DNA from: a virus
DNA: 64,000 nt
IMG/VR virus record: IMGVR_UViG_3300047311_000725
Direction: 5' to 3' (one strand)
The notes beneath the pieces are model-generated. The model ran no database searches. It was not told the DNA's origin and saw nothing but the letters and a program-made list of their open reading frames with translations. Every line of letters begins with the position of its first letter. The stretch's first letter is position 1. Below, one piece after another: positions 5,390-62,486 of this stretch. The translations under genes were made by a program, and so were the position numbers.

Positions 5390-7219
5390 TTAGTGGGACT
5401 CGGGAGTGCCGCCGCCGTTGCTGCCGTTCTTCGAGAGGCCGTCCTTGATGAGGCCGGCCAGGAGGACGTTCACCAGGCCGCCCTGGTTGTTGCCGTCGAG
5501 ACCGCCACCGGCCATGATCTCCGGGACCAGGGCGTGACCGGACGAGGAGAGGGCGCGTGCCACCTCGATGAGGGCGTAGTTGGCCTTGCCGTTCGCGTCG
5601 GTCTTCTTCTGGATGACCTCGGCCTCGGCCGTGCCGACCGCCGTGATCTTCTTGCCCTCGGCGTCACCGATGGCCACGAGCACCTCGGCATCCGCCTTGG
5701 CGTTGATGGTCTTGGACTGGGCGTCGCCTTCCGCCTTCTTGACCGCCGACTGGGCGTCGAACTCGGCGATCTGGACCTTCCGCTGGGACTCGACGACGTT
5801 GGCCTGGGTGGCCGCCATCGCCTTGGCCTGCTCGAACTCCTTGCGGGTCTCCTCGGCCATGCGCTGGGTGTCGAACGTGATCTTCTCCTGCTCGGCGATC
5901 TTCCGCTTCGTCAGGGTCTCCATGAGGGCGTCCGGCGGGGTGATGTCACCGATGAGGGTGTCCACCGCTCCGACGTTGTACTCCTTCAGGGCGTTGTTGA
6001 TGGAAGCCCGGGCGTCCTGCTGGCGCTTCTCGCGCTCCTTGAGGAAGGCGATGGCGTCCGAGCCCTGGGCCGCGTTCCTGAAGTAGTTGCCGATGGTCGG
6101 CTCCAGGACCTGGGTGACCAGGTTGGCCACGCTGCCAAAGCGGGCGATGACCTTGGGGGCGTCGGTCCGGGGGATGTGGATGATCTGGCTCACGTCCAGA
6201 TTGAACTTGAAGCCGTCGGAGCTACGCACCGTGATGGTGGACAGGTTGGCGTCCAGCTTGTGCGCCTCGGTCTTGCCGGTCGCCCAGTTGAGGACGACGT
6301 TGGCCGTCGGCACGACCTCGACCTTGTGGGTGTACGGGTTGATCGGGTACTTGCCCGGGTCCAGCGGCTCGACCCACACACCCTTCTGCCCACGGACCAC
6401 GAGGTTGCCGTGCTTGAAGGACTCACCCGTGACGTCCACACCGACCCCACCGACGTAGGCGATGACCACGCCAGCATTGGCGATGGGCACCTCGGTCATC
6501 GGCTTCACTTCCACGGTGGCGAAGAGCGGGTTGATGTAGTACAGGCCGGCCAGGATGACCTGCTCCTGCAGGCCCTTGTAGCCACCGGCGGTGATGAAGG
6601 CCTCGCCGTCCTGGTACATGTTGTGGCCGGGGAACTCTCCGCCGGCGATGTCACCGGTCGAGAGGGGCTTGCCGTCCTTGGTGGTGACCACGCCGACCAT
6701 GTTGTCGGGGATCTCGAGAGCCTCCACGATCCTCAGGGAGAAGAGGACCGTGTTGATGCGGTAGGTGCCGGGGGTGATGATGGCGATCTGGGGACCACGT
6801 TCTCCGCCTGCCTCGAGGAAGGCGCGGGCGTTCTGGAACGAGTCACACTCGACCTTTCGCGCGAGGACTCGACCGTTCACCGGAACCTGGCCACCTCGCG
6901 ACTCGATGAGCCCGACGTGGTTCTCCGGGATGTTCACGAACTTCTGGAGGGTGACCGCGTACTGCCACGGCCAGAGGCCGAAGTGGACGCCAGGGGCCAG
7001 CGTGTCCGCCTGGAAGCCGGCCTCACCCTTCAGGGCGATGACGGCACCGTCGGGCAGGGTCTTCGCGCCGAAGAGGGCGAACTTCTTGTCGACGATGCCG
7101 ACCTCGTCCTTCGAGACGGAGACCATCCCGAAGCAGAGCCGGAGCACGAACTTGTAGAGCACGAGGGTCAGGACGATGGGTACGACCCACCAGAACGCGA
7201 GCACGGTTGCGATGGTCAT
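5390..7219 (-). CDS. flotillin / SPFH (band-7) domain membrane protein
   Basis: N-terminal TM helix, SPFH-like core, long Ala/Lys/Glu/Gln coiled-coil (KAEGDAQSKTINAKADAEV..), Gly-rich C-terminus; 609 aa. Confidence 0.75.
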   Translation of the reverse strand: MTIATVLAFWWVVPIVLTLVLYKFVLRLCFGMVSVSKDEVGIVDKKFALFGAKTLPDGAVIALKGEAGFQADTLAPGVHFGLWPWQYAVTLQKFVNIPENHVGLIESRGGQVPVNGRVLARKVECDSFQNARAFLEAGGERGPQIAIITPGTYRINTVLFSLRIVEALEIPDNMVGVVTTKDGKPLSTGDIAGGEFPGHNMYQDGEAFITAGGYKGLQEQVILAGLYYINPLFATVEVKPMTEVPIANAGVVIAYVGGVGVDVTGESFKHGNLVVRGQKGVWVEPLDPGKYPINPYTHKVEVVPTANVVLNWATGKTEAHKLDANLSTITVRSSDGFKFNLDVSQIIHIPRTDAPKVIARFGSVANLVTQVLEPTIGNYFRNAAQGSDAIAFLKEREKRQQDARASINNALKEYNVGAVDTLIGDITPPDALMETLTKRKIAEQEKITFDTQRMAEETRKEFEQAKAMAATQANVVESQRKVQIAEFDAQSAVKKAEGDAQSKTINAKADAEVLVAIGDAEGKKITAVGTAEAEVIQKKTDANGKANYALIEVARALSSSGHALVPEIMAGGGLDGNNQGGLVNVLLAGLIKDGLSKNGSNGGGTPESH

Positions 7220-10800: not shown

Positions 10801-11384
10801 TCGAGGACCTCGTTCTTGACGTCCTCCCAGGTGCAGGACCCTTCCTTCAGGTCCCACAGCCGCTTGGAGATGACGCCGCCCATGCAGGCCGAGGTCGCGA
10901 TCAGGCCCTTGGCGTGCTCCTGGAGCATCACCTTATCCATGCGTGGCTTCTGGTAGAAGCCAAACTTGTGGGCCTTGAACGTGAGCTGGTAGAGGTTGCT
11001 GAGACCCTCCCGGTTGCTGGCGAGGATGACGAGGTGGCCCTTGCGTCGAAGGGCCTTGGGATCGACGACGTCACCGTCGGCGGTGTACTCGTTGTCTTCC
11101 TTCTTGGCGCCCTTCCGCTTCTGGGAGTCGATCTCCCCCTTCAGCGCCTTCCACTCCTTGAGGTCGTGGATGACGTAGGCTTCCACGCCGAAGACGGTCT
11201 TCACGCCCATCTTCTTCCCCATCAGGTACCAGTCGGCGTGACCGTGTGTCACACCGTGATCGGTGAGGGCGATGGACTTGAGACCCTTCTCCTTCGCGGC
11301 CTTCAGCAGCTCTTCCGGGAGGGAGAGGCCGTCGAAGACCGAGAAGTGAGAATGGTTGTGAAAGGAGGCGAACTCCTTGAGCAT
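7857..11384 (-). CDS. dnaE: DNA polymerase III alpha subunit (DnaE-type, PHP domain)
   Basis: N-terminal PHP motif FHNHSHFSVFDG..LTDHG, 1175 aa C-family polymerase architecture. Confidence 0.9.
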   Translation of the reverse strand: MLKEFASFHNHSHFSVFDGLSLPEELLKAAKEKGLKSIALTDHGVTHGHADWYLMGKKMGVKTVFGVEAYVIHDLKEWKALKGEIDSQKRKGAKKEDNEYTADGDVVDPKALRRKGHLVILASNREGLSNLYQLTFKAHKFGFYQKPRMDKVMLQEHAKGLIATSACMGGVISKRLWDLKEGSCTWEDVKNEVLDYDRIFGRGRFYLELQFNEMDKEQNYINTSLVQLHKETGVPLTVTTDSHYATQAEWEPRELLHLMGWSKKTVADLPEQKLDSQVKQLFVKSPEEMWLTYEKLAGHCIDPKTAMEAFQGTLLIDSLIEDFEPDTHQRLPTLPFANPYKEMGMRAIAGLKKLGLAENEIYKDRLLFELGVIKQKGISNYFLVCQQIIEEAKKYMLVGPGRGSAAGSLVCWCLGITDLDPIKRDLLFERFLDIDRAELPDIDTDFEDPKAAKRMLQKMFGDDNVASLSSYGTFQIKGLLKDLGRVYGVDHNLINKLNRQIDKELKVLYVDQDKSTLVVKLDDIIRVSPSFNTFVEENPDLGSKIKTLYGRIRHVTRHAAGVIIGDNLPAETSCFVAKAKGKKTKDNEDGEDDTLAEEGEMVVQCSFTEGIVNKNLSAMGFVKMDILGLANLRVIRCALEHISSRTGKSFDELYEGLRSHNMDLDDIKVMKNIFWDGNFGAIFQFSNPGIRALAKRVKPDSFVDVSAICSLYRPGPLKGGYDKVYVTAKHGEIASLGHPVLDEILGSTKGCLVFQEQLMKVCSVFGKMTGKEVNRVRKVLLKKDKSKTEEFLKQENDVLYASFHKGCMEHGFPEDKTLKLWEDIKAFGGYAFNKSHSDAYSLTTMQTAHLATYYPLEFYTAALTKAQANAIQTLVADIQKTGIKILPVDINKSRAANIIEGLCIRLALGRVLGVGPSVIEKIVANQPYTSFQDFLDRSKANKTAVEALIQVGAFGSLPGCGNIKRLWEAYRKWTDNVLVTLDGELKIVDEKVSGGPKLARVQSVKGRPRWDELYSRIMTDEKIEDFKLHEKVFLENELMEFSLAGTPFEILDRKKKITAMFDGVVSTMEEFLGGEEEMTMLPVVVKEWKEKPQRNGQMFAFIKFATEDGETFDVPAFANMWKWISPVIRKGSVYIATFNRDIDDDPERLKLGRPGWAQSQHSTMQAFINVDDISL

Positions 11385-25819: not shown

Positions 25820-28800
25820 TTACTTCTGCTTCTTGAATGGGAACTTCTTCTTCGGATCGACCAGGCTGTAGGGAGAGGGAGTGACCTTCAGGGCCTTCAG
25901 CTCGGGGATGATCTCGTAACGACCGGTCCTGGATGCTACACGTACCCCCTTCCGTCCCGAGGTCACTTCGAACTGGGGGACGGGCGGATTGAGCTTGGAG
26001 AGACCGAACGGGTCCTCGTCTCCAAGAAGATAGAAGTCGTTGCCGAACTGCATGTACGGGGCGTTCTTGTACTTGTAGTGGGCGGCCACCAGCTGCTGCA
26101 CGTCCCCCGCCCCGACGTTCAGGTAGATGTAGCGGTTGCCCTTGCCTGCCGACTTCTTGTTGTCGATGAAGGCGTTGATCTCGTCCGGGGTCACGGCGTT
26201 CGGACTACGCTTCATGATGTCGGCGGGCTTCCCCTGCGACGGCATGGAGAGGACCTTGGGCACCGGAAGACCCTGCTCCTTGCGGCTCTTGGCCACGAAG
26301 GCGTGCAGTTCCTTCAGGAACTTCTGGGCGTCGGGGTTCGTCTCCAGGTCCTTGGCGATCCCGGCCGTGAAGCCGGTCTGCTCGCCCGATCCCTGCCACT
26401 TCCCGTCCACCAGCTTCATGCGGGCCGAGACGAGGTTGGCGCCGCCGGCCTCGGTGTACTTGGCCTCGATGTAGGCGCTCTTCCCGCCGATGGTCACCTC
26501 GACGTCCGCCTTCTTCGGATCGTTGCCACCGACGGCCTTGGCGTCGATGCCCTGGCTCTGGAGGGACTTGGCCACCAGGTGCTCGAACTGGTTGGAGGCG
26601 CGGTCAGACGTCTTGGCCTGAGTCTTCTCAAGGAGCCGCATGATCTCTTCCCCGATGGCCTTGGCCGTGTCGACACCCTTCAGCTTGTCGGACCAGAGCT
26701 CGAACTCTTCCGGCGCTTCCTGGTAGGCCGCGACGTCCTCGTCGGTGAACATGTTCTGCGGGCTGGACCAGCCGGAGCTTCCCGCCCTGAGACCTGCCTG
26801 AGTTCCGCCGGGGCCGCTTCCCGGGGTCATGGTGATGCCGATCTCGGAGATGATGGTCTCCATGATCTTCTCGAGCACGGGCGGTTCGCCGCCGTTGGTA
26901 CGGCCGCCCGGGTCAGAGAGCACGTACTCCCCGCCACGCTTCATGATGTTGTCGCCCTTGTAGTCGGCGAACATGATGTTGGCCTGCTTGAGCTCCGCCA
27001 TCATCTGGTCGATCTGGTACTTCTTCAGACCGCGCTCGATGTAGTCGATCTTCTGGTCGATCATCCGCTGGATCCGCTCGCGGTTCTTGGCGCCGGCAGA
27101 CACCAGGTCGCGAGAGAGCTCGTCACGGATCTTCTTCATGACCGTGTCGTAGTCCACGATGTGGGGCGCCCCGCCCGTGACTTCGGAGGAGCGGAGGTCA
27201 TCGACCAGGTCATCGACCTCGGTCTTCTCGGCCGGAGACAGGGGGTGTAGCTTCTCCCGGATGATTCCGTAGAGGGGCTTGTCGGGGTTTCGACGGTCGA
27301 TCATCCGGAAGACGTCATCGATCTTGACGACGTGCGGAAGGGTCTTTCCCTTGAGGGCGAGGCAGGACTTCGCCTCGTTGGGAGAGGTCGTCGCCTTGAA
27401 GACCTTGTTGTTGCCCATGTCGTAGGCCACGCCGACCTGTCCCGCTCCGAGGCGATGGAGCTGGTCGGCGTTGATGCCCTTGGCACGGAGCTTCTCCCCG
27501 TTGTTCTTGATGACGGCCATGATGGCGTTCTCGCCACCGAAGTCGGCGATGTCTTCCCGGAGCGGACCCTCGTTCTTGGCCAGCTCGTCCTTCAGATCCT
27601 TGTAGATGGACTCGAAGGTCGCCTGGTTCGAGGTGACATGCGGGTCGAGCATGCTCTTGACGGCGTTCCGGTCGTCCTTGGCCAGAGCCTGACGTAGACG
27701 GGTGCCGCTGATCCGGTCGGTGTCGTCGTCGTTCTTGACGCCCGGAAGCATCTTGACGACGGCCAGATCGGGATCGAAGTTGCTGTCTGCCGCCTTCCCC
27801 TGGGCCTTGTACTCCTTGGACCGGTCGATCTGCTGCTTCATCTGCTCGAAACGGTCGGGTCCGACCAGGATCTCGCAGGCCGTGTCGCCCTTCAGGGCGC
27901 TGCCCTTCCCGGCCACGTCGGAGAGGATGCCCGGGACGAAGCCGCTGTTCTTGCCGCCCGAGGTCGCCTTGTAGACCTCCAGCTTCCTCCAGACGTCCGG
28001 GAGGGACGCCTTCATGAGCTTGAGCCGGGTCTCGTAGGAGAACGGGTTCTTCTTGTCCGGCGTGTTGCCGGCCACCAGGACGATGGTCTTGGTGTGGGTA
28101 TTGGCGAGCTTCCGAATCACTTCGGCGTGACCCCGGTGGAACGGCTGGTAACGTCCTATGGTCACGCCCACCGTGTCAGCCTGGGCCTCCTCGATGTTTC
28201 GAGCGTACTTGTCGACCGTGCCGTCCTCGGTGTGATTCACGAGGCCGCCGTCTACGCCGACGTACTCCTGCTTGTCGTCCGTGTAGTCCGGCTTGCTCCG
28301 CTCTTCCAGGTCGTCGGCACGTCCCACCGGACCCTGGCCCTTGAGGCGCTGGGTACCGGAGAACTCCCGCATCAGGGTGTGGACGATCCGCTCGAGGACA
28401 GGGGGAGCCGCGCCCGGGCTCTGGCTGAGACCGAGGTCGATGACGACGTAGTCGTTGCCCCGCATCATCAGGTTCCCCTCGTGGTAGTCGAGGAACTCGA
28501 TACGCTGGCCCGCCAGCTCCTTGATGATCTCCGGAAGCTGGAACTCCTTCATCTGGGAGTCCATCAGCTTCTGGACGTCCTTGTCCTTGATGTGGAGCCG
28601 GACCTGGTCCATCACCTTGCCGTAGTCGCCCGAGAGGATGGCCTCGCCAGCCTTGCAGGCCTGCAGCAGGTCCGTCACCAGCTCGAACTCCTTCTTGTCG
28701 TAGGCCGACATCTGGGCGAGCTTTTCCTCGACGATGCCATAGAACTCCGACCCAGGGAGCTGGAAGACGTCGAAGATGTGGACCACGTGCTTGAGCTTCT

Positions 28801-31800
28801 TGTCCTTCAGATGGTTGGAGGACTTGGCTTCAAGGATGTCGTCCGTCACCTTCAGGACCCGACCTGCTCCGATGTCGAAGGCGATGCCGTGCGCCCCGTG
28901 TCCGAGCGGCTTGAGCGGTCCCTTCACGATCCCCTTCTTCTTGAGGAGAGGGAGCACGTCCCGGACCACGTCCATCATGGGACGGTCCTTCTGGGCCTTC
29001 TTACCGGCCTGAGCGGCCTTGAGGGCGGCCAGCCTGTTCGGCGGACCTTCGTCGAGGTACGGGACCTTGTTCTCCAGGACGGGCGGTTCCTTCCCGCCGG
29101 CGACCTTGGAGTAGCCGATGTCGATGAGAACGTAGACCCCGCCCTGGCGGACCATGATGTTGCCCGCGTGGTAGTCGTGGAACTTGATCCCCTTCGAGTT
29201 CAGCTCCTGCACCATCTCGTCGATATGCACCTTCTTCGTGATGATGTCCCACTGGACGTTCATCTTCTTGGCGTAGGCGATGGCGTACTTGTTGTCGATC
29301 TCGTCCGTCTTCCAGGTCGGGTACTTCTCGGCGATCTTCTTGAAAACGCCCTCCTGGCAGGCTTCCTTGGTCTTGTCCCAGTTGTAGCCCGAACGGTAGA
29401 TCGTCTCCTGAAGGTTGAAAGCGAGGATGGCGCGGTTCAGATCAGCCGCCTCTCCGCTGGCGTCCAGACCGCTGGGGTCCTTGCCCATGCCCGGGAACGG
29501 GGCGAGCTTCTCCTGGAGGATGCCGTAAACGGCGCCGACCAGTTCCTCGTCCTCACGGAAGCGGAAGACGTCCGAGAAGCGGGCGACGTGCTTCAGGTTG
29601 ACGTCCATCAGCTTGTAGGAAGCGACCGCCTCCTGCTCGTCGTTGGTGATCTTGAGGACCTTCCCTCCGACGTCGAACGCGACTCCACGTGTTCCCTTCC
29701 CGAGCGGGTGGGCCCCACGGACGTTGATCCCCCGCTTCGCCAGCTGGGGGATGTTCTTCTTGAGGATCTGCTGGGCCATCTCGGTCGTGACGCCGGTGGT
29801 GGCCTTGGGCGCGCCCTTGGTCTTGGTCTGGGCGACGCTGGTCTTGTCGAACCCCGAGGTCGGCTTCTGGCCGGTCTGCGGCTGGGTGGCCCCGTACGAA
29901 TCCACTCCGGGTGCTTCACGCATGACGGATTCCTCGGCCTCTTCCTCGCCGCCGCCCTGGAGCCTCTCCAGACGGTGCTGGCCGAGGAAGAGCTTCATGA
30001 TGGCTACCTTCTTGGTCAGGTCGCCCTTGAGCCCACCGATCGCCTCGGCGGCCTTCTGGAGCTCGTCCAGCGACTGGTGGGCCTGCTGGAAGTCCGTGTC
30101 CGTCCGCTGCATCACGAGCGGGTCCATCTTCCGGGTCTGCCCCTTGAGCTGGACGGTCGGCCCCTTCTTCTTCTCGGCGGCCCACTCGGCCTCGAGCTGC
30201 TTCATCTCGTTCTGAGCCTTGGTGATCTCGGCCTTGAAGGTCGCGACCGGGTCCTTTCCGCCGAAGGCCTTGTTCTTCTTCACCCACTGTCCGAGCAGGT
30301 AGTCGTTCTTCTTCTCGGGGGTGTCGGCTTCCTTCGGGTACTCTGTCTCGGAGTTCAGGGAAGAGAGCTGCCGGCCGAAGGCGGTGCTGGCCGCCTCAGG
30401 CTTCCCGATGACGTCGGTGGCCACCCGCTTCCTGAAGTCGGAGATGACGCCGTTCCGCCAGATGTTGTCGACCTTGGTCCCCTTGCCGATGAGACCGCGG
30501 TACTTCCAGTTGAACTGGTTGAGCTTCGTGAAGAGGTCCTTGTCGACGAGCTTGGTGAGCGCGCCGTTCTCCAGGTCACGGAAGACGATGCCTTCCACGT
30601 CCCCGCCTTCGGGACCGTAGGAGGACTTCTGCTTCCGGAGCTGTCCGACCAGCTTCTCCTTGACCGCCTTCTGGATCGCCGAGAAGCGCTCCATGGCCGC
30701 CTTGTACGGGCCCTTGCCCGCCGCCTTCAGCTTGTCCGGCTCGAGCTTCTTCAGCTCCTGGTAGATCTGTCCGAGGGAGGTGAACTCCTCCTTGACGTCC
30801 ACCATCACGTCTTCCGGGCTGATGACCCGCTTGTACTCGAACTTCCACGGGTCCTTGCCGTCCGTGAGCTGGCCGCCCGACTTCTTGATGAGGTCGTTGG
30901 CCACCTTCTTGGAGGCCTCGTCGGACAGGACCGCGTCGCCCTTGTGGACGCCGTGGATCATGATGACGTTCGGACCGTACTCGATGGAGTTCGGGATCTT
31001 GGTGTACAGGACCTCGGCCGTGAAGACGGTGTTCGGCGGGATGTTCTGTCCCACCGGCTTGGACTCGAGCGCCTTGTGGGCGTTCTTGAGAGCCGCGAAC
31101 ATCGGCTTGTCCGGCCACTCCTTCGAAGACTTCTTCGGAGTCCCGTTCTTGCTCTTGGTCCAGAGCTTTCCGTTCTCGGCACCGAACTCCATGCGGGCGG
31201 AGCCGTCCACCTTCTCGGAGACCTCGAGCCCGCCCTTGAGCGGCAGGTCCTTGTACTTCGCCAGGAACTGCAGGAACTCCTGGGGCTTCATGTCCTCGAG
31301 GTGAGAGATGCCGCCGCCCTCGTCGAGCTTGGCCGCCTTCAGCTGGCCCGGATCCGTCGACCACCAGATCTTGTCGATCCGGGTCTCGTGGGTGCCGGGG
31401 TTGAGCGCCTTGGCCGAACCCTTGGTCGCGGCGTCCGAACGCCCGCGGAGGATCGCCATGATGTTGCCCTTCCGTTCCGCAGTGGCCGCGGTGGTGGCAT
31501 AGACCATGGCCAGCTTCGGATTGGCGGACCAGTAGCCCTTCTTGTCGACCTTGCTGATCACCGCCGAGCCGTTCGGCTGGGACGGATTGCCGCCGAGCTT
31601 GGCGAGCTCCTGGGGAGTGAGACCACGGAGACCGCGGAAGACGACGCCCTCGGGCTCGTTCGCTTCACCGAGCTCCGACGGCTCGTCGTGCTTGGCTCCC
31701 TTGAGGAAGCCCTTCAGGTAGCCCTTGACCTTCTCCAGCTTCTTCGGATCCATGGTGGACTTGGCCTTGGCCCACACCTGCTCGAACGGCGCAGCCAGGT

Positions 31801-32725
31801 CCTTCACGGACCACGGCGTGCCGGTGCCCTTGGAGATGAGCTTGGCCACTTCCTCGGGATCACTGATGCTGGTGGCGTCCACACGGTCCGACTTGAACTC
31901 TTCCTCGCCCTTCTTGTTCTTGACCTTCCGACCGACCTTCTGGAAGACTCCCTTGGCCGGGCTGATGGACCAGAACTTGACCGAGCCGTCCGGCTGCGGT
32001 TCCTCGGTGGCGTACCGGAGGAGACCGAGGACGAGACCTGTGCGGGGAAGCGCCTTGTACTTAGACTCGCTCTCGCCAGGTCCATAATAGGAGAACTGGG
32101 TCCACGCCTCCGGACCGACCATCAGGTCGACCTGGGCGGAGAGCTTGGTGGGCTTGCCATCAGGGGTGTACTGCGGGAACTTGGAGTTGATCTCGCCCAG
32201 TCCCTTGGCGACCTTGTGCTCGATCCCCAGCTTCTTCAGGATGGCCGAGATCTCTTCGAGGGACAGTTCGGTGTCCAGGCCGAGGTCGATGTCCCCGCTG
32301 GACGCCTTCTTGCCGGTGGAACCCACGGGCTTCACGGACTTGTGCTTGACCTTGGAGAGGACCTGCTTCTTGTAGGCCTCGATCGTCGGTCCGACGTTCT
32401 CACGGGGGACACGGTCGGTCCCCATGGCGTTGCCGCCTTCGGTGAGATCGCTCTGGTCGGAGTAGGTGACGGTCGGCTCCTGTGCGGCGCCGGCATCGTC
32501 GGGGATGGGGGACTTGGCCAAGGGTGCCTCGCCTTCCTTCATGAAGGGGAACCGCTGCTCTTCGTCGTCCTCGAGACCGTCCGGCACCGGGTACCCGGGC
32601 TTGCCCGCACCACCGCCATGCCGGTTGTCGCCGGTCCCGCCGGCTGCACGCCCTGAGTAGTTTGGTTGAGACGCCCCGTAGATTGATCGGAGCGACTCTC
32701 GGATGATGTCGTCGAGCCGGGACAA
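25820..32725 (-). CDS. 2301-aa multidomain protein: ligase/capping-enzyme-like nucleotidyltransferase region + three tandem protein-kinase-like domains + HxGH (cytidylyltransferase-fold) nucleotidyltransferase domain
   Basis: KxDG motif SEKVDGSAR (~nt 31205-31225), later EGIVFR; three repeats each with Gly-loop/VxK (LGKGTRGVAFDVGGKVLK; LGHGAHGIAFDIGAGRVLK; LGAGQVGVAYDMGNNKVFK), catalytic D-x4-N (HDYHAGNIM; LDYHEGNLM; ADYKGDNIM) and DxG (DIG; DLG; DPG); TIGRYQPFHRGH HxGH motif (~nt 28130-28165). Confidence 0.85.
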   Translation of the reverse strand: MSRLDDIIRESLRSIYGASQPNYSGRAAGGTGDNRHGGGAGKPGYPVPDGLEDDEEQRFPFMKEGEAPLAKSPIPDDAGAAQEPTVTYSDQSDLTEGGNAMGTDRVPRENVGPTIEAYKKQVLSKVKHKSVKPVGSTGKKASSGDIDLGLDTELSLEEISAILKKLGIEHKVAKGLGEINSKFPQYTPDGKPTKLSAQVDLMVGPEAWTQFSYYGPGESESKYKALPRTGLVLGLLRYATEEPQPDGSVKFWSISPAKGVFQKVGRKVKNKKGEEEFKSDRVDATSISDPEEVAKLISKGTGTPWSVKDLAAPFEQVWAKAKSTMDPKKLEKVKGYLKGFLKGAKHDEPSELGEANEPEGVVFRGLRGLTPQELAKLGGNPSQPNGSAVISKVDKKGYWSANPKLAMVYATTAATAERKGNIMAILRGRSDAATKGSAKALNPGTHETRIDKIWWSTDPGQLKAAKLDEGGGISHLEDMKPQEFLQFLAKYKDLPLKGGLEVSEKVDGSARMEFGAENGKLWTKSKNGTPKKSSKEWPDKPMFAALKNAHKALESKPVGQNIPPNTVFTAEVLYTKIPNSIEYGPNVIMIHGVHKGDAVLSDEASKKVANDLIKKSGGQLTDGKDPWKFEYKRVISPEDVMVDVKEEFTSLGQIYQELKKLEPDKLKAAGKGPYKAAMERFSAIQKAVKEKLVGQLRKQKSSYGPEGGDVEGIVFRDLENGALTKLVDKDLFTKLNQFNWKYRGLIGKGTKVDNIWRNGVISDFRKRVATDVIGKPEAASTAFGRQLSSLNSETEYPKEADTPEKKNDYLLGQWVKKNKAFGGKDPVATFKAEITKAQNEMKQLEAEWAAEKKKGPTVQLKGQTRKMDPLVMQRTDTDFQQAHQSLDELQKAAEAIGGLKGDLTKKVAIMKLFLGQHRLERLQGGGEEEAEESVMREAPGVDSYGATQPQTGQKPTSGFDKTSVAQTKTKGAPKATTGVTTEMAQQILKKNIPQLAKRGINVRGAHPLGKGTRGVAFDVGGKVLKITNDEQEAVASYKLMDVNLKHVARFSDVFRFREDEELVGAVYGILQEKLAPFPGMGKDPSGLDASGEAADLNRAILAFNLQETIYRSGYNWDKTKEACQEGVFKKIAEKYPTWKTDEIDNKYAIAYAKKMNVQWDIITKKVHIDEMVQELNSKGIKFHDYHAGNIMVRQGGVYVLIDIGYSKVAGGKEPPVLENKVPYLDEGPPNRLAALKAAQAGKKAQKDRPMMDVVRDVLPLLKKKGIVKGPLKPLGHGAHGIAFDIGAGRVLKVTDDILEAKSSNHLKDKKLKHVVHIFDVFQLPGSEFYGIVEEKLAQMSAYDKKEFELVTDLLQACKAGEAILSGDYGKVMDQVRLHIKDKDVQKLMDSQMKEFQLPEIIKELAGQRIEFLDYHEGNLMMRGNDYVVIDLGLSQSPGAAPPVLERIVHTLMREFSGTQRLKGQGPVGRADDLEERSKPDYTDDKQEYVGVDGGLVNHTEDGTVDKYARNIEEAQADTVGVTIGRYQPFHRGHAEVIRKLANTHTKTIVLVAGNTPDKKNPFSYETRLKLMKASLPDVWRKLEVYKATSGGKNSGFVPGILSDVAGKGSALKGDTACEILVGPDRFEQMKQQIDRSKEYKAQGKAADSNFDPDLAVVKMLPGVKNDDDTDRISGTRLRQALAKDDRNAVKSMLDPHVTSNQATFESIYKDLKDELAKNEGPLREDIADFGGENAIMAVIKNNGEKLRAKGINADQLHRLGAGQVGVAYDMGNNKVFKATTSPNEAKSCLALKGKTLPHVVKIDDVFRMIDRRNPDKPLYGIIREKLHPLSPAEKTEVDDLVDDLRSSEVTGGAPHIVDYDTVMKKIRDELSRDLVSAGAKNRERIQRMIDQKIDYIERGLKKYQIDQMMAELKQANIMFADYKGDNIMKRGGEYVLSDPGGRTNGGEPPVLEKIMETIISEIGITMTPGSGPGGTQAGLRAGSSGWSSPQNMFTDEDVAAYQEAPEEFELWSDKLKGVDTAKAIGEEIMRLLEKTQAKTSDRASNQFEHLVAKSLQSQGIDAKAVGGNDPKKADVEVTIGGKSAYIEAKYTEAGGANLVSARMKLVDGKWQGSGEQTGFTAGIAKDLETNPDAQKFLKELHAFVAKSRKEQGLPVPKVLSMPSQGKPADIMKRSPNAVTPDEINAFIDNKKSAGKGNRYIYLNVGAGDVQQLVAAHYKYKNAPYMQFGNDFYLLGDEDPFGLSKLNPPVPQFEVTSGRKGVRVASRTGRYEIIPELKALKVTPSPYSLVDPKKKFPFKKQK

Positions 32726-34686: not shown

Positions 34687-35286
34687 CTAATCGAGCTTTT
34701 CCTGACGTGCCGACCAGTAGTCCGCCGTGTGGAGCAGGAACGCCAGTTCCGGTTCTCGCCCCCTGTAGGGCTTGTTCTCGTCTACGTACTGGCCATCGTT
34801 CAGACGGATTGCCAAATATTCGTCACTGGTTACCTTGATTTCGTGGTCCTGGAGGATGTACAGGCCACGTTCGGAGGTGGGCATCCACGGGCAGGCCTTG
34901 TTGATCTCGTAGAGACGGCCCCGGTTCCGCTGCCACGCGTCCTGGTTCGGGAGGTAAGATTCCTTTTCCCCGTCCCCGACCTTCCCGAGGTCGTGGAAGA
35001 GACCGACGAAGGCGAGCTGGTGGTCGGGGTATCTTCCCTTGCAGAGGGCGTCCGCGACCTTCTTCAGGTTCCGGACCACGTTGAGAGAGTGTTGGGCGAG
35101 ACCGCCCGGGTAGCAGGAGTGGTACTCCTCGTGGCTGGAGGCCGGAGCCGTGAAGTAGGTCAGTCCGACCGGCCCGTCCATCATCTTCAGGACCTGGTCT
35201 CGCCGGTCGTCCGGCATCAGCTCGATCAGCTTCTCTACCCGCTCGTGGTTCTTGAGGAGTTCCTCTTCAGTCGGTCGCGTCGCCAT
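34687..35286 (-). CDS. HD-domain phosphohydrolase
   Basis: H..(HSLNV), LFHDLGK, LLHTADY residues fit H...HD...H...D metal-binding pattern; 199 aa. Confidence 0.7.
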   Translation of the reverse strand: MATRPTEEELLKNHERVEKLIELMPDDRRDQVLKMMDGPVGLTYFTAPASSHEEYHSCYPGGLAQHSLNVVRNLKKVADALCKGRYPDHQLAFVGLFHDLGKVGDGEKESYLPNQDAWQRNRGRLYEINKACPWMPTSERGLYILQDHEIKVTSDEYLAIRLNDGQYVDENKPYRGREPELAFLLHTADYWSARQEKLD

Positions 35287-36706
35287 ACGTCCTGCCTCTC
35301 TTCAGGTTCGCCCTGAACGTGAATCCTTCTACTGGCGCCTCCATGAGAGACTTCACGACCAGCATCTCCTTCCCCTCTTCGGGGTGCATGTCGATGTCCA
35401 GCTCGTCGTGGACCGTGAAGATGACCTTGCTCCGCTTCTCGCGGAGGTAGGCCACCACCCGGACCAACGCCTGCTCGAAGACCCAGGAGCTGAACCCCTG
35501 GGCGTAGAGCCCGATGATCTTGCCGTCGTGGTCGTCCCCGGCCACCGGGATCTTCCGACCGCTCGGCAGCATGACGAACCCGTCCACCCGGGCCTGCACG
35601 GCCAGCTTCCGGCGGAAGTCCGCGATGGGACGGAGCTTCCGGTCCATCACCTGCTTCACCTGCTGGACCTTCATCATGCTCAGTCTGGTCTTCGAAGCGA
35701 GGGTCTCGTCCGACCCTCCATAGATGTACACGTAGGAGAAGTACTTGATGATGTCTCGACGGAGCTTCTCGGGCGGACCCGAGAGGATCATCTCGCAGGT
35801 CTTCACGTGGAAGTCGTCCACCCCGTCGTAGATCTTCCGGAAGTCCTTGTCGTCGAGCGAGGCCACGATGCTCCGGTAGTCGATGGCGTTGTAGTCGAAG
35901 GCCACGATCTCCCCGCCCTCGTGCCGGCTGACGATCCCCTTGCGGACCGTGCCGTGCGGGATGCCCATGCAGTTGAACCCCTCTTCGACCTTGATGCGGC
36001 CGGTCTTCCCGCCTGCCGGGTTGAAGAGGGTACGGACGTAACCGTCCGACTGCGCCATCTGAGAGATGAACTTGTGCTCGTGCTTCGGGAGGTCTTCCCG
36101 GAGCTTCTCCTTCGCGTAGCCCACGTCGACCTTGATGCCGACGACCTCGATCTGCCGGAGAGCCAGGGCGAACGGCCAGGTGTCCCTCTCATACTCTCCG
36201 AGGTCGCAGGACTCACCCCGGAGGGCCTTCTCAAACAACGCCATAGTTGCTATGGCCCGGACCTTGAGGAGTGACTGGACAGCCCTGGCGGGCATCAGCT
36301 TGAGAAGGGAGTGACGGGTGACGTCGATCCCCGCCGTCTTGCAGGCCTTGACGTGGGCGGTGTAGTTCTGTTCCCGGTCCAGGACGTTCCGGGCCATGTC
36401 CGGGTCGAGGTAGTCACGGGCCAGGTCGAAGAGCTTCCGCTCCCCGCCATAGAGGATCTTCACGTCATAGACCGTCTTGCCCGAGGTGCAGATGTCCTCG
36501 AGGTTCCGGTGCTCGAAGCAGACGACGTGGCTGGCTTCCCGGGCGACCTCGTTCACGAAGCCGACTGCCGGATCCAACACGAACTCGAACACCGTGCCGG
36601 CCAACATGGCCACGGCGCGCCCTCCGGCCTGATCCTTGAAAGGAACCAGGACGACCGGCTTCCCGTGAACCGCGTCGAGAACAGAGCTCAGGTCGAGTTC
36701 CTCCAT
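35267..36706 (-). CDS. family A (Pol I-like) DNA polymerase domain protein without recognisable 3'-5' exonuclease
   Basis: Motif A DYNAIDYR, motif B RRDIIKYFSYVYIYGG, motif C TVHDELDID; 480 aa starting MEELDLSSV (ATG 36704-36706). Confidence 0.6.
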   Translation of the reverse strand: MEELDLSSVLDAVHGKPVVLVPFKDQAGGRAVAMLAGTVFEFVLDPAVGFVNEVAREASHVVCFEHRNLEDICTSGKTVYDVKILYGGERKLFDLARDYLDPDMARNVLDREQNYTAHVKACKTAGIDVTRHSLLKLMPARAVQSLLKVRAIATMALFEKALRGESCDLGEYERDTWPFALALRQIEVVGIKVDVGYAKEKLREDLPKHEHKFISQMAQSDGYVRTLFNPAGGKTGRIKVEEGFNCMGIPHGTVRKGIVSRHEGGEIVAFDYNAIDYRSIVASLDDKDFRKIYDGVDDFHVKTCEMILSGPPEKLRRDIIKYFSYVYIYGGSDETLASKTRLSMMKVQQVKQVMDRKLRPIADFRRKLAVQARVDGFVMLPSGRKIPVAGDDHDGKIIGLYAQGFSSWVFEQALVRVVAYLREKRSKVIFTVHDELDIDMHPEEGKEMLVVKSLMEAPVEGFTFRANLKRGRTYGDATD

Positions 36707-58767: not shown

Positions 58768-59076
58768 CTAGTGGAGGATGGAGCCGGTCAGGAGGAAGAC
58801 CATGTTCGCCAGACGGTCGAGGGCCTGCTTGACCGTCGTGGGAGCGGGGGCCTGCCATTGGCTGGCGCTGATCGGGGTGTAGACCGACGACCCGCTGACC
58901 GCCGAGGCGACGGATCCGCTGAGGGTTCCTGCCGAGGCGTCGACCAGCGCGAAGGCGGCGTCGATCTCTCTCCGAAGCCGGATGTCACCGTCGGCCGAGA
59001 GCTCCGCCTGGCTACGCGGGTCGTGGGCCGCGTCGATGTTGTCGAAGATCTGGATTCCGATGTTCTTTGTGGCCAT
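58768..59076 (-). CDS. hypothetical protein (102 aa), possible head decoration/completion protein
   Basis: First ORF after capsid terminator; CTATTTAGA motif 3 nt upstream of ATG. Confidence 0.45.
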   Translation of the reverse strand: MATKNIGIQIFDNIDAAHDPRSQAELSADGDIRLRREIDAAFALVDASAGTLSGSVASAVSGSSVYTPISASQWQAPAPTTVKQALDRLANMVFLLTGSILH

Positions 59077-59079
59077 GGT

Positions 59080-59087
59080 TCTAAATA
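59080..59087 (-). promoter_or_regulatory. CTATTTAGA motif copy immediately upstream of gene 58768..59076
   Basis: ccatggttctaaatagcagg. Confidence 0.35.
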
Positions 59088-59094
59088 GCAGGCC

Positions 59095-59122
59095 AAAAAG
59101 AAAAGGGGGCCGTTTGGCCCCC
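59095..59122 (-). terminator. rho-independent terminator downstream of major capsid gene
   Basis: Hairpin gggggcc-gttt-ggccccc followed on minus strand by UUUUCUUUUU. Confidence 0.6.
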
Positions 59123-59153
59123 TTCTCATCTTAGCTTAGGCTAAGGTCTTGGG

Positions 59154-60860
59154 TTAGATGACGTTCATGTCCTCGACGGTCACGGTCCCGTAGAAGTCGC
59201 TGCGGACCAGCTTCTTCGCGTACCGGGTCATGACGCCCTTCCGAGGAGTGAAGTCCTCCGGGGCGTAGATCGTCGGGGTGACGATGAGCGGCACGTACGG
59301 GGCGTACACGTAGCCGGTCTCGAGGAAGCTACCACCCTTGAACCCGATGAGGACTCGGTTGCGGGGGAAGTAGGGGTCCTTGTAGACCGTGAACCGGTTG
59401 TTCAGGGTCCCGACCTTCTCGGTGCCGACCGTGAACATGGTCTCCTTCGGATCCATCGAGAGGATCGGCTTGTAGAGCACCGAGGCCTCGAGGATGGTGG
59501 CCACGTCCGGGCTGGTCACCATGAAGTTGGCCGCGCCACGCAGCGTCTTGCGGTGGATGTTGTTCGCCACATCGATGCAGGTCTCGATGAGGGTCTCGTA
59601 CCACTCGCGGACGGTGCCGGTGAAGCTTGCTCCCGAGACGCCCAGGCCCGTGGTCTTGTCCACGAAGTTGCCCGGCTTGCGGCTCCAGAAGAAGTTCGCG
59701 CCGGTCGCGAAGTAGAGCAGGTCGCTCAGGATCTCGCGGTCGATCTCGAGTGCGATCGCCTCCGAGAGGACCTGGGTGAGCTCCACCTCGGCGTCCAGGT
59801 TCTGGTACGCGGCCAGATCCTGAGCGAGCTCCGGCGTCCACTTGGCGCGCAGCTTGCGGGTGTTGGTGACAACCGCGGTGCTCTGGATCTTGAGGTTGAT
59901 CTCCGGGATGACCGGGGTCGGGGTCGCGCCGAAGTCCGACTCGAAGTTCGGCAGGACGAGGGTGCCCGTGGTCGACGCCACGATCGTCGAACCGACCGTG
60001 TAGCTGACCTTCGCCTGCGGAACCGCATCGACGGTGCCCGAGACGATGAAGACCAGGTCCTGGCCGTTCGGCGCCACCTTGGTGTGCCGGCGGTAGACGA
60101 TCAGCGCGTTGCCGGTGCCCTGGCCGCTGCCGTCAGCAACCGGGACGCCGTCCGTGGTCGCAGCCCACGAAGTCGAGGAGCCCGAGAGCGGCATCCACTG
60201 CTTGATCGCCGCGATGTCCGACGCCGCTTCGCCGAGGGCGGAGAGGGTCGTGTACGCGCCGGTCAGGGTCAGCTTGGTGAGCTGGCCTGCAGCGATGGTG
60301 CCCGAGAGGTCCGGGTCGTAGGCCACGTCAGCCAGGGTGGCCGCCGAGAGTCCCTGCGCGAAGGTCTGGGTCGAGACCTTTTCACGCATGGAGTACGACG
60401 TACCCAGGTTGTACATACCCTTGGTCGCAAGGTTCTGCGTGCCCGGGGCCGTCTGGTCACCGAAGAGCGAACCGCCCGACGAGAAGTCGTCGTTCTTGTT
60501 GCCCGCCTTGACGTTGGCGTACTGGTAGTCGAGGTAGAACAGGAGGCCCGACGGCAGCGAGAGCGGCTGCACCGAGACGAGCTCGTTGGCGATGAGGCCA
60601 CCGAACACGCGCCGGACGATCGGGAATGCCACGTTCTGGAAGCCCTGGAGGTCGCCACCGACCGAGTTGGACTCGGTGAGCAGCTGGGCCGCCTGGGACT
60701 CCAGGAGGCGCGCCATGTTCGACTTCGCCTTGTTGCGCGGCGAGTCGGCCAGGCCCTCGAGGAGGCCGGTGCGCTCCCACTTCTTGACGAGACGGGCGGA
60801 CTCCTTCAGCATGTCCTGCCGGGAGATGCCCTCCGTCAGTTCCTTCATATCGAATGCCAT
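59154..60860 (-). CDS. major capsid protein, T4 gp23-like
   Basis: FPIVRRVFGGLIANELVSVQPLSLPSG resembles gp23 MVRRAIPNLIAFDICGVQPMNSPTG; 568 aa; followed by strong terminator. Confidence 0.75.
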   Translation of the reverse strand: MAFDMKELTEGISRQDMLKESARLVKKWERTGLLEGLADSPRNKAKSNMARLLESQAAQLLTESNSVGGDLQGFQNVAFPIVRRVFGGLIANELVSVQPLSLPSGLLFYLDYQYANVKAGNKNDDFSSGGSLFGDQTAPGTQNLATKGMYNLGTSYSMREKVSTQTFAQGLSAATLADVAYDPDLSGTIAAGQLTKLTLTGAYTTLSALGEAASDIAAIKQWMPLSGSSTSWAATTDGVPVADGSGQGTGNALIVYRRHTKVAPNGQDLVFIVSGTVDAVPQAKVSYTVGSTIVASTTGTLVLPNFESDFGATPTPVIPEINLKIQSTAVVTNTRKLRAKWTPELAQDLAAYQNLDAEVELTQVLSEAIALEIDREILSDLLYFATGANFFWSRKPGNFVDKTTGLGVSGASFTGTVREWYETLIETCIDVANNIHRKTLRGAANFMVTSPDVATILEASVLYKPILSMDPKETMFTVGTEKVGTLNNRFTVYKDPYFPRNRVLIGFKGGSFLETGYVYAPYVPLIVTPTIYAPEDFTPRKGVMTRYAKKLVRSDFYGTVTVEDMNVI

Positions 60861-60894
60861 TTTTCGTTTCTCCTAGTTCGTCTTTGGGTCTGGG

Positions 60895-62157
60895 TTACTT
60901 GAGCAGGCCCGCAAGCTGACGCATGCGGTCGTACTTGCCCTGCCCCTCTGCCCGATCCACCGACTCACGGAGGATTTCCGGCTTGGGCGCTCCCGACGTG
61001 CGGGGGCGCTGGGCGTTGCCTGTCGGCTTGCGAGACTTGGACTCGCTGAGCGGACCGGCCGATGCCTTGAAGGAGCTCACGATGGCCTCGTAGACCATCT
61101 TCACCTGGGCGACCGACTTTGCCTTGTCGATCGATTCGAGGACGACCTGCTTCTGCTCCTTCGTGAGCCGGCCGTGGGTGTTCAGGATGCGGTTGACGTG
61201 CAGGACCTTGCTGTTGAACAGGTTGGTCTCGTGCAGCGTCTGGCCGAGGCGCTTGATCAGGGTGACCGCTTCCTTGAGCTTGCCGCGGAGCATCTTGTTC
61301 TCCGCGAGGCCAGCCTTGAGCGCCTCCTTGATCTGGTAGTCGACGTGGTCCGGCGGGACCTCGGTCTCCCAGTGCTTCTCGCCCGTCTTCTTGTCGGCGA
61401 TGCCGGTTTCCTTGGACGCCTGGTCGAGCTCGCCTCCACCGACGATGTCCTTGAAGCCCTTCGACACCTGGGCCTCGGTCTGGAGGGCAGCCTCGTAGAC
61501 CTTGTGGAGCTCCGATTCGGAGATCTCGACTTCCTCGTCCATTTCGTCCTTCTCCTTGTCCTTGCCCTCCTTCATGTCGGGCTCGGCTTCGGCATCTTCG
61601 CCGAGGTGAGGAATGGACATGCCGCCCATCCCCTCGTCTTCCATACCTTCGGCGCCTTCGGCACCGTCACCACCGGCTTCCATCTCGTGGCCGCACTTGG
61701 GGCACTCGAGGTGTTCGCCTTCTTCGACGCCGTGCTCGTGGGCACCGGTCGCACTCTCGGGATTCTCATCCTCGCCGTGCTCACCCGGAAGCTCCATGTG
61801 CTCCTCGCCGTCTTCGGAAAGCTGCGGGAAGAACCCTGACAGCGACTCGAGGTCGAGCTCCTTCTCCTTGTCGTCCTTCGCTTCGGCCATGTCCTTGTCT
61901 CCCATGTTCTTGCCTTCCTGGTACTTCTTTTCCTTCTCCCGCTTCGCCGGAGAGTAGTAGTCAGCTCCCTGGTCGTTCACGCGGTCGACGCTCTCGCCGG
62001 CAAGGGCGGAGCGGATCTGCTTCTCGAGGAGTGCCTTCACGCCGGGAGCCATCTGCTCCACGATCTCGTTCTTGGCGGCTTCGAGCGCGGCGGCCTTCAG
62101 GGCCTTCGCGTCCTTTACTGCCTCCTTCACGAGCTCTCGTCCTTCCTTTGCGGCCAT
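60895..62157 (-). CDS. prohead scaffolding protein (gp22-like)
   Basis: 420 aa, highly acidic, coiled-coil, immediately upstream of major capsid gene. Confidence 0.6.
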   Translation of the reverse strand: MAAKEGRELVKEAVKDAKALKAAALEAAKNEIVEQMAPGVKALLEKQIRSALAGESVDRVNDQGADYYSPAKREKEKKYQEGKNMGDKDMAEAKDDKEKELDLESLSGFFPQLSEDGEEHMELPGEHGEDENPESATGAHEHGVEEGEHLECPKCGHEMEAGGDGAEGAEGMEDEGMGGMSIPHLGEDAEAEPDMKEGKDKEKDEMDEEVEISESELHKVYEAALQTEAQVSKGFKDIVGGGELDQASKETGIADKKTGEKHWETEVPPDHVDYQIKEALKAGLAENKMLRGKLKEAVTLIKRLGQTLHETNLFNSKVLHVNRILNTHGRLTKEQKQVVLESIDKAKSVAQVKMVYEAIVSSFKASAGPLSESKSRKPTGNAQRPRTSGAPKPEILRESVDRAEGQGKYDRMRQLAGLLK

Positions 62158-62191
62158 GTCGTCCTTTCCTCTCCGGGCGGAAACTTCTACA

Positions 62192-62199
62192 TCTAAATA
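62192..62199 (-). promoter_or_regulatory. CTATTTAGA motif copy 35 nt upstream of scaffold ATG
   Basis: ctacatctaaataaagac. Confidence 0.35.
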
Positions 62200-62229
62200 A
62201 AGACGCCCAGAATAATTTCGCTCTTTTTT

Positions 62230-62481
62230 TTAGTTTCTCGATTCTCCGCGCTTGAGTTCCAAGCGTCGGTTGAAGTCTGCCCTTGCGCGCTTCCTCCGGT
62301 TCTTTACCGAAGGCTTCTCGTAGCCTCTACGCTGGTAGACTTCCTGTATGATGCCCTCATTCCTCACCTTCTTCATGAACCGCTTGATCATTCTTTCCGG
62401 CGATTCGTCCTTCCGGGGAGCCACCTCTACGTGTCTTGCCCGAACAGGTTCGTGCGAGGAATCCTTGCCCTTCTTCATCAA
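62230..62481 (-). CDS. rpsU: ribosomal protein bS21 homolog
   Basis: MIKRFMKKVRNEGIIQEVYQRRGYEKPSVKNRRKRARA aligns with E. coli S21 [36 protein letters not shown]. Confidence 0.8.
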   Translation of the reverse strand: MMKKGKDSSHEPVRARHVEVAPRKDESPERMIKRFMKKVRNEGIIQEVYQRRGYEKPSVKNRRKRARADFNRRLELKRGESRN

Positions 62482-62486
62482 ATCAC

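Follow-up and report, generated by a model that had tools for sequence, protein, structure and literature searches.

A bS21 homologue encoded among the head genes of a GC-rich lineage of T4-like phages

Introduction

Ribosomal protein bS21 accounts for 88% of virus-encoded ribosomal proteins and is the commonest kind (Mizuno et al. 2019, Nat Commun, PMC6375957), yet an effect on translation during infection has been shown for no phage. We describe here a bS21 gene found in a stretch of 64,000 nucleotides of viral DNA (IMG/VR record IMGVR_UViG_3300047311_000725; this whole stretch is called the window), where it lies on the minus strand directly upstream of the genes for a putative scaffold and the major capsid protein.

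Previous work found that the 1310 genomes or contigs encoding a viral bS21 are almost all lytic and mostly aquatic, and that the gene is under purifying selection (PMC6375957). In the same study the bS21 of phage HTVC008M entered E. coli 70S ribosomes and left them nearly inactive in vitro, with about 5% activity. In five clades (a-e) of Bacteroidetes phages with genomes of 293-331 kb, bS21 is found in the region of the large terminase subunit (TerL), portal, protease and capsid genes (Chen et al. 2022, ISME Commun, PMC9723584) and is co-expressed with structural genes in situ. These authors proposed that phage bS21 is substituted into host ribosomes at a late stage and that divergence of its N-terminal helix confers mRNA specificity; they also raised its possible encapsidation.

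The role of cellular bS21 in the use of Shine-Dalgarno (SD) sequences has also been studied. E. coli bS21 structurally supports the anti-SD region, and ribosomes without uS2 and bS21 show a preference for leaderless mRNA (Acosta-Reyes et al. 2023, PMC10491246). Flavobacterium johnsoniae bS21 occludes the anti-SD through its C-terminal region and Tyr54, which stacks on the 16S 3' tail (McNutt et al. 2023, PMC9976891), and in which direction bS21 acts on SD use differs between hosts (PMC9976891). In Francisella, bS21 paralogues are reported to alter which mRNAs get translated (PMC12262407). Thus phage-encoded bS21, its place near protease and capsid genes, and the hypothesis of late substitution are already published (Mizuno 2019, Chen 2022).

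Results

The gene encodes a bS21 homologue

An initial reading of the window, made from its sequence only, had reported an 83-residue bS21 open reading frame (ORF) at 62230-62481, without giving a strand. The ORF exists, on the minus strand, and its length depends on the choice of start codon. A TTG at 62481 lies one codon upstream of an ATG (62478-62476). Orthologues called independently in public assemblies have 78-83 residues and start at the equivalent methionine. Because the TTG directly precedes the ATG and the orthologues start at the same methionine, the ATG is the likelier start, and the product is likely to have 82 rather than 83 residues.

62230..62478, minus strand: bS21 coding sequence, 82 amino acids from the ATG

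The assignment to the bS21 family was borne out by several searches. The protein matched Pfam Ribosomal_S21 (PF01165) with an E-value of 3.1e-12 and 46.5 bits, against a gathering cut-off of 27, over profile positions 2-50 of 55. It also matched the NCBIfam equivalog TIGR00030 (S21p; 33.4 bits against a curated cut-off of 28.95) and PHROG 21469, 'ribosomal protein S21' (E 5.8e-7). A phmmer search of all PDB chains (E<=0.01) retrieved 27 distinct sequences, every one of them a bS21. BLASTP against E. coli bS21 gave 33% identity over 46 ungapped residues (E 2e-7). This alignment spans residues 22-67 of the phage protein, i.e. its core.

An alignment with the bS21 family, the check that had been proposed in the sequence-only reading, found the conserved S21 core residues in place. 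The core motifs RFxK, G, YEKPS and RRK align without gaps to E. coli bS21 and to bS21 of solved ribosomes (S. aureus-type and others). The sequence-only reading had also described the protein as aligning along its length with E. coli S21. This holds for the core residues and the motif string, but not for the first ~15 residues and the C-terminal tail; the wording overstated the match because the N-terminal extension and the tail have no E. coli counterpart. With an isoelectric point (pI) of 11.1 and 27 Lys and Arg against 12 Asp and Glu residues, the protein fits, in size and basicity, a family whose members have about 55-90 residues and are strongly basic. Judged by its sequence, the ORF is a bS21 homologue with an intact family core.

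Invariant core and variable ends

Comparison of 27 clade members indicated which residues are invariant or nearly so. They are P21, R22, E25, I31, R33, F34, K37, V38, R39 and G42 in the first part of the core, and E46, Y53, E54, K55, P56, S57, R61, R62 and K63 in the second. The first ~15-17 residues form the extension, and the C-terminal tail is divergent too. Within the close subclade the extension carries a motif, (H)EPVxAR(H/Y)xEV, which is kept at the amino-acid level in 14 sequences, down to 58% identity. In a sister subclade with a bS21 of 68 residues, the extension is far shorter and the gene position is unchanged. The N-terminus showed no conserved T4-type capsid-targeting sequence and no (L/I)xE protease site in the relatives compared; the residue three positions before the N-terminal Glu is H, Y or G.

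An AlphaFold2 (AF2) model built with 27 homologues had a predicted local distance difference test score (pLDDT) of 82 and helices at residues 27-40, 43-51 and 56-81. Confidence was low for residues 1-20 (pLDDT 55-74). A Foldseek search of the PDB with this model returned two bS21 chains at the top, 5mmj_u and 8fmw_U, although the matches were weak (E 0.065 and 0.11, TM 0.38-0.48). The predicted fold is consistent with bS21, as agreement rather than independent proof.

We also looked at the residue corresponding to Tyr54 of F. johnsoniae bS21. It is F69 in the phage protein (codon 62272-62274, minus strand). Phe occupies this position in 26 of the 27 clade sequences, the remaining one having Tyr, and in 26 of 75 cellular bS21 examined, chiefly those of Verrucomicrobiota. 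The genes of the phage itself nevertheless make heavy use of SD sequences.

bS21 is a long-standing resident of the head module

The sequence-only reading had placed the gene between head genes, which agrees with our analysis. On the minus strand the order is a 256-residue gene, a 197-residue gene, bS21, a 72-nucleotide spacer, a 420-residue acidic gene, the capsid gene and a hairpin.

63138..63908, minus strand: 256-residue protein, no family match, GTG start; upstream of the 197-residue gene; 86% identical to its orthologue in locus L001
62487..63080, minus strand: 197-residue basic protein (pI 9.7), no family match; directly upstream of bS21
60895..62157, minus strand: 420-residue acidic protein (pI 5.0, 21% Asp + Glu), putative scaffold in the position of T4 gp22
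59154..60860, minus strand: major capsid protein of the T4 gp23 type (Pfam Gp23, E 1e-76; PHROG 138, E 3.5e-69)
59100..59127, minus strand: intrinsic-terminator-like hairpin behind the capsid gene, with 12 pairs (8 G-C) and a T run following

The scaffold-like gene and the gp23-type capsid gene, which is two genes downstream of bS21, thus make up the downstream side. The upstream side was seen in two IMG/VR relatives (L090 and L091), in which all four compared window genes are 100% identical. Identical or 93%-identical copies are present, for example, in the JGI samples 3300047471, 3300046529 and 3300049448. In both, an S77 prohead protease gene lies three genes upstream of bS21, just past the end of the window. 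A portal-like gene is found further upstream in L090, and portal and TerL genes further upstream in a close relative (L001). The bS21 gene therefore lies within 10 genes of protease, capsid, portal or TerL, the distance used to assign a phage bS21 to the structural region (Chen 2022, Fig. 7).

A first homology search yielded 26 proteins with 54-93% identity to the window bS21, and a profile search 1197 proteins at E<=1e-6, the best 120 of which were all metagenomic. We inspected nine contigs with called genes, including ones of 197, 203 and 214 kb, and found a single order on one strand: (TerL, portal, 2-3 genes,) S77 protease, 2-4 genes, a gene of ~150-230 residues, bS21, a gene of ~350-430 residues, and gp23. 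A scan of IMG/VR gave 59 loci. In nearly all of them tblastn placed an S77 protease upstream of bS21, at a distance of 0.4-3 kb and in the same orientation; contigs that extend far enough also have a gp23 capsid gene downstream. In each related locus the putative scaffold gene separates bS21 from the capsid gene.

bS21 keeps its position even among phages with capsid proteins that are just 41-70% identical. The term 'inserted', used in the sequence-only reading, is therefore misleading: the gene is not a recent insertion, since its position and strand are conserved across a deep phage clade. From these comparisons we conclude that bS21 is a long-standing resident of the head module in a deep clade of roughly 200-kb, GC-rich, T4-like phages.

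Among 50,697 deposited phage records the window has no close relative at the DNA level. A nucleotide search of that collection with positions 59000-63000 gave no match, and tblastn with bS21 gave nothing at E<=1e-3; at E<=10 the only matches, all weak, were the bS21 genes of PA5oct-like phages and of HTVC008M. The window capsid protein is at most 39% identical to that of any of these phages, the best match being the uncultured huge phage LR756508.

Only one homologue (P0026) bears the name of an organism, 'MAG: 30S ribosomal protein S21 [Acidiferrobacterales bacterium]', MAG standing for metagenome-assembled genome. It was considered as a cellular donor and rejected. Its contig (L008; GCA_054637615.1, JBTSRE010000006.1, 197 kb) is a phage contig binned in a bacterial MAG, because an S77 protease and a gp23 capsid gene flank its bS21. 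The placement of this contig in an Acidiferrobacterales bin may be a weak host clue or a mere binning error.

Neighbouring genes

The proteins of 197, 256, 420, 102 and 119 residues encoded in the neighbourhood had no Pfam, PHROG or NCBIfam match, and the 197-residue protein had no PDB match either. The scaffold-like function of the 420-residue gene is putative and is assigned from position and composition. In the clade, the 197-residue gene is always the immediate upstream neighbour of bS21, with orthologues in place that are 32-83% identical. Its N-terminal pattern M(K/R)I..(E)L....V...(I/L)xE-A[KG]K (residues 1-23) is kept in seven orthologues over this range of identity. The (I/L)xE-A[KG]K motif resembles, and could be, a T4-type (L/I)xE site for prohead protease or a capsid-targeting leader, which would make the protein a candidate component of the prohead core or the head interior. 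The closer orthologues also have in common a very basic tail at the C-terminus, GALAASIGRxKYGAKGMAKKAAAGRK.

Selection and codon usage

We found dN/dS values for bS21 of 0.16 against L001 and 0.07 against L093. The gene is under purifying selection. Its divergence follows that of the capsid protein: bS21 and capsid identities are 93% and 92% in L001, 94% and 94% in L093, and 65% and 62% in L005, while the flanking 197-residue protein drops to 34%. A functional phage copy of bS21 appears the best explanation of the sequence data.

The codon usage of bS21 is atypical. GC at third codon positions (GC3) is 0.69, as compared with 0.84-0.94 for neighbouring genes, and in relatives it is 5-15 points below the neighbours. 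Seven of the 16 Arg codons are AGA (4) or AGG (3), against 8% in other genes, and GTA, ATA, GCA and TTG, otherwise very rare, are also used. The trend was followed in the orthologues of L001 (10001-10249), L093 and L151 (9001-9249). Low GC3 and several AGA or AGG codons at conserved positions were found in orthologues despite dS values of 0.36-0.92 for the two closest. The atypical codons could reflect dosage control or a constraint at the RNA level.

Cellular bS21 proteins were at most 52% identical to the window protein, the best being from Melainabacteria, Armatimonadota, Verrucomicrobiota and Planctomycetota, in a scan of genomes that was pre-filtered by two peptide patterns and is not an exhaustive phylogeny. 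The C-terminal 'ARFNAMLAAR' of verrucomicrobial bS21 resembles 'ADFNRRLEL' and 'AAFNSRLAARQ' of the phage clade. This gives a hint, weak because of the pre-filtering, that the donor or host may belong to the Planctomycetes-Verrucomicrobia-Chlamydiae (PVC) group.

Expression signals

An SD-like sequence, AGTAAGTGAT, precedes bS21.

62482..62491, minus strand: SD-like AGTAAGTGAT, overlapping the stop codon of the 197-residue gene and ending 3 nucleotides before the bS21 ATG

The longest SD match ahead of bS21 has 5 nucleotides. The stop codon of the 197-residue gene (62487-62489) is separated from the bS21 ATG by only 8 nucleotides, which makes translational coupling of the two genes possible. 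L001 has an identical junction, and L005, L008, L009, L151 and L152 have SD-like ones of 8-34 nucleotides. No promoter-like element belonging to bS21 itself was seen directly upstream of it. A scan for sigma-70 promoters and terminators around bS21 gave nothing above shuffled expectation except the hairpin after the capsid gene. Equivalent hairpins are found behind the capsid gene of L001, L005, L009, L151 and L152; the one at 59100..59127 is likely to be the end of the head-gene transcript.

The window contains six copies of the 8-mer TATTTAGA, whereas 0.08 were expected. All are on the coding (minus) strand, in intergenic positions upstream of genes.

63097-63104, minus strand: TATTTAGA before the 197-residue gene and bS21; same position in L001 and L003
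62192-62199, minus strand: TATTTAGA in the spacer between bS21 and the putative scaffold gene; kept in L001, L003 and L151 (in which bS21 is 69% identical)
59080-59087, minus strand: TATTTAGA after the capsid terminator and before a small post-capsid gene, 3 nucleotides from its ATG
52997-53004, minus strand: TATTTAGA before the sheath gene
48106-48113, minus strand: TATTTAGA upstream of a gene
616-623, minus strand: TATTTAGA upstream of a gene

AT-rich strings related to the copy in the bS21/scaffold spacer were found in L005, L008 and L009. Late promoters of T4 have the sequence TATAAATA. By analogy with it we infer that TATTTAGA is a candidate late-promoter element. The copy at 63104 is a putative promoter-like element for the unit formed by the 197-residue gene and bS21, and that at 62199 for the scaffold and capsid genes. 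The position of bS21, 8 nucleotides behind its upstream gene and downstream of TATTTAGA, suggests that it is co-transcribed with the head genes, presumably late in infection. Most genes behind TATTTAGA have leaders with an SD; a strong SD-like sequence, GGAGAGGAAAGG, precedes the putative scaffold gene. The gene behind the copy at 59087 may itself be nearly leaderless, since TATTTAGA lies only 3 nucleotides from its ATG.

Candidates for leaderless mRNAs were also found. An extended -10 sequence, TGnTATAAT, lies 6-10 nucleotides before start codons on the minus strand at 11399 (DNA polymerase III (Pol III) alpha, start at 11384), 2809, 16885 and 47482, and the genes behind it are candidates for leaderless or near-leaderless mRNAs. 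A plain TATAAT (63913-63918) lies just ahead of the GTG of the 256-residue gene, and there is only one TATAAT on the other strand.

SD sequences are frequent in the window. A match of at least 5 nucleotides at -18 to -4 was present in 31 of 52 genes (60%), compared with 9.6% of same-strand control ATGs, and in 20 of the 31 genes that start at their first possible start codon. No phage-specific leader motif beyond ordinary SD sequences was found for the genes of the window. Thus the three premises on which the sequence-only reading had built its interpretation, i.e. leaderless promoters (four start codons with a candidate TGnTATAAT), a separate class of late promoters (candidate TATTTAGA) and SD-led genes, can all be seen in the sequence.

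Other features of the window

The window has about 62% GC, and 55 of 61 likely genes, as judged by third-position GC, are on the minus strand. Replication-related genes comprise those for a DnaE-type Pol III alpha, a class I ribonucleotide reductase, RecA, a DnaB-like helicase, a family A polymerase and thymidylate synthase. T4-type structural genes include those for the tail sheath, a gp13-like neck protein and the gp23-type capsid protein; a match to gp15 was weak and below cut-off. The Pol III alpha is of the bacterial DnaE type (PHP, NTPase, finger and HhH domains) and occurs alongside the family A polymerase. A 609-residue SPFH/Band 7 protein and a glycosyltransferase related to the plant-type 'reversibly glycosylated polypeptide' are also encoded.

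7857-11384, 35267-36607, 5390-7219 and 4020-5153, minus strand: Pol III alpha, family A polymerase, SPFH/Band 7 protein and glycosyltransferase, listed jointly
25820-32725, minus strand: 2301-residue ORF with a TTG start and a GC3 of 0.90
45795-46029, minus strand: three tRNA-like genes

The only Pfam matches of the 2301-residue ORF were a cytidylyltransferase-like domain (residues 1522-1679) and a weak APH-kinase stretch. ARAGORN assigned Ile-AAT to two of the three tRNA-like genes and an undetermined anticodon to the other. Rfam confirmed two of the three as tRNAs (58 and 41 bits); at gathering thresholds it reported no RNA element near bS21, these two tRNAs (45880-46029) being its only hits.

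Discussion

A possible role for the phage bS21

The best-supported reading of the protein is that it still binds the platform of the 30S subunit, in view of its invariant core and the purifying selection on it. On balance we lean towards the idea that synthesis of phage bS21 coincides with that of the head proteins, and that the phage protein supplements or takes the place of host bS21 during bulk translation of SD-led structural mRNAs. The gene would be transcribed with the upstream 197-residue gene, alongside the scaffold and capsid genes. Its product would enter the host 30S subunit at the normal bS21 site on the platform, beside the 3' end of 16S rRNA. As bS21 binds the ribosome loosely and can be exchanged, the phage copy could supplement or displace the host copy, and it would keep the anti-SD region competent for SD-led phage mRNAs during the mass synthesis of structural proteins. 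Late timing, incorporation into ribosomes and the effect on mRNA choice are what we infer here.

Several points weigh against this role. The timing is read from an uncharacterised motif, TATTTAGA, and the TATAAT at 63918, upstream of the 256-residue gene, could drive earlier read-through transcription. The HTVC008M protein is the only phage bS21 tested in vitro (PMC6375957), and incorporation need not mean stimulation, because it made the ribosomes nearly inactive. The direction of any effect is uncertain, because in Bacteroidia bS21 hides the anti-SD instead of exposing it (PMC9976891), and the key Tyr54 is replaced by Phe in the phage protein. The rare codons (GC3 of 0.69) would not be expected in the gene for a protein required in large amounts.

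The general idea in the sequence-only reading, that a phage tunes initiation by means of its own bS21, is not new, because late-phase substitution into host ribosomes has already been published (PMC9723584, PMC6375957). What that reading adds is a twist: early leaderless mRNAs would need no bS21, and phage bS21, appearing late, would shift ribosomes to SD-led structural mRNAs. The TGnTATAAT sequences 6-10 nucleotides before the starts of Pol III alpha and three other genes, the mostly SD-led leaders of the TATTTAGA class and the preference of ribosomes without uS2 and bS21 for leaderless mRNA (PMC10491246) all agree with such a temporal switch. Yet there are only 4-5 leaderless candidates among roughly 52 genes, most genes in the replication part of the window also have an SD, and the TATTTAGA copy at 59087 may itself give a nearly leaderless mRNA. 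Host ribosomes, moreover, already carry bS21, which would have to be limiting. We therefore find this switch decidedly unlikely. An elaborated form of it, in which the N-terminal extension and the Phe at the Tyr54 position would reprogram anti-SD use by the 30S subunit for a timed change from leaderless or short-leader to SD-led mRNAs, with rare codons setting the dosage, is likewise a long shot. The extension may instead serve to specialise ribosomes: phage bS21 would displace host bS21 and favour phage transcripts, with specificity provided by an extension lying near the mRNA exit and the SD-anti-SD region. We consider this unlikely. The extension motif is conserved in 14 sequences. Within the clade, identity to the window protein is 54% or more, whereas no cellular bS21 found exceeds 52% identity to the clade; the published proposal on the N-terminal helix (PMC9723584) and the report on the Francisella paralogues (PMC12262407) point the same way. 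Against it are the low AF2 confidence for residues 1-20, the 68-residue sister subclade, which has the same gene position with a much shorter extension, and the lack, among the genes of the window, of a phage-specific leader motif beyond the SD.

Two further explanations do without a ribosomal function for the phage. The protein, with its pI of 11.1, might be a head-internal, DNA-binding or injected protein that is packaged with its prohead-core neighbours and delivered to the next cell. It is encoded amid genes in prohead-core positions, next to a 197-residue protein with a protease-site-like motif, and encapsidation was raised by Chen et al. (PMC9723584). However, the defining residues of ribosomal bS21 do not vary, as selection for rRNA binding would predict, the N-terminus has no (L/I)xE site or T4-like capsid-targeting sequence, and cultured phages carry bS21 in non-structural contexts, so that we consider this use very unlikely. 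The gene could also have been picked up from a host recently and serve no function in the phage, as its GC3 and its Arg codons (7 of 16 AGA or AGG against 8%), unlike those of the rest of the genome, might suggest. But it occupies the same position in phages with 41-70% identical capsid proteins, dN/dS is 0.07-0.16, no cellular bS21 exceeds 52% identity, and low GC3 and AGA or AGG codons are common to orthologues at dS values of 0.36-0.92. Conserved synteny and dN/dS exclude a mere passenger, an idea to which we give hardly any credence.

Comparison with known systems

The value of this case is mainly comparative. It adds a deep, GC-rich, SD-using clade in which bS21 has a fixed place immediately ahead of the scaffold and capsid genes, and extends the link between bS21 and late structural genes beyond the low-GC Bacteroidetes phages. 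As the SD-using counterpart of those phages it offers a contrast, since bS21 should aid SD recognition in SD-using hosts, whereas it blocks it in Bacteroidia. By itself it raises no new question.

The phages described by Chen et al. are the closest in arrangement. Both they and the window phage are large myoviruses in which a few genes separate bS21 from those for protease and capsid, the same late role has been proposed, and an aromatic residue (here F69) stands at the position of F. johnsoniae Tyr54. In contrast to clades a-e, bS21 is on the same strand as its neighbours in the window and in all related loci examined. It also differs from those clades in lying 8 nucleotides behind the upstream gene, in a genome where SD sequences are abundant. 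GC is 31-34% in the Chen genomes and 62% in the window (60-64% in nearly every 2-kb bin). Their bS21 proteins are nearest to those of Flavobacteriia, Cytophagia and Saprospiria, while that of the window is nearest, in the pre-filtered scan, to those of Melainabacteria, Verrucomicrobiota, Planctomycetota and Armatimonadota. Co-expression with structural genes was observed in situ by Chen et al.; for the window phage the shared TATTTAGA motif and the operon layout are indirect signs of it.

HTVC008M (a Pelagibacter phage) and PA5oct (a Pseudomonas phage) are also large lytic myoviruses, with a bS21 of the same family under purifying selection. Their gene, however, lies in a non-structural block made up of a CobS/ClpX-like ATPase, S21, a hypothetical gene and, in PA5oct after one further gene, Hsp20, and neither the ATPase nor Hsp20 is found among the genes flanking the window bS21. 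The proteins share 37-40% identity over part of their length with that of the window (E>=0.07 in the phage collection).

With cellular bS21 (rpsU) the phage protein shares the motifs RF(K/M)(K/R), G, YEKPS and RRK, a small size, basicity, and a predicted helical hairpin followed by a long C-terminal helix. It differs in context, the cellular gene being found in surroundings of the rpsU-dnaG-rpoD type and the phage gene in a head operon. Compared with E. coli bS21 it has the N-terminal extension of ~15 residues and Phe where E. coli has Lys or Val; its C-terminal 'FNxxL' motif resembles verrucomicrobial bS21.

In T4 the head genes follow the order 20, 67, 68, 21, 22, 23. The clade has its portal, prohead-core, S77 protease, scaffold and gp23-type capsid genes in the same order, but with 3-4 extra small genes and bS21 between protease and scaffold, where T4 has no ribosomal protein gene. 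What is new here is limited to the high-GC lineage, the placement of bS21 within the operon on the same strand, the N-terminal extension and the persistent atypical codons; the interpretation given in the sequence-only reading is the published hypothesis together with the switch from leaderless to SD-led mRNAs.

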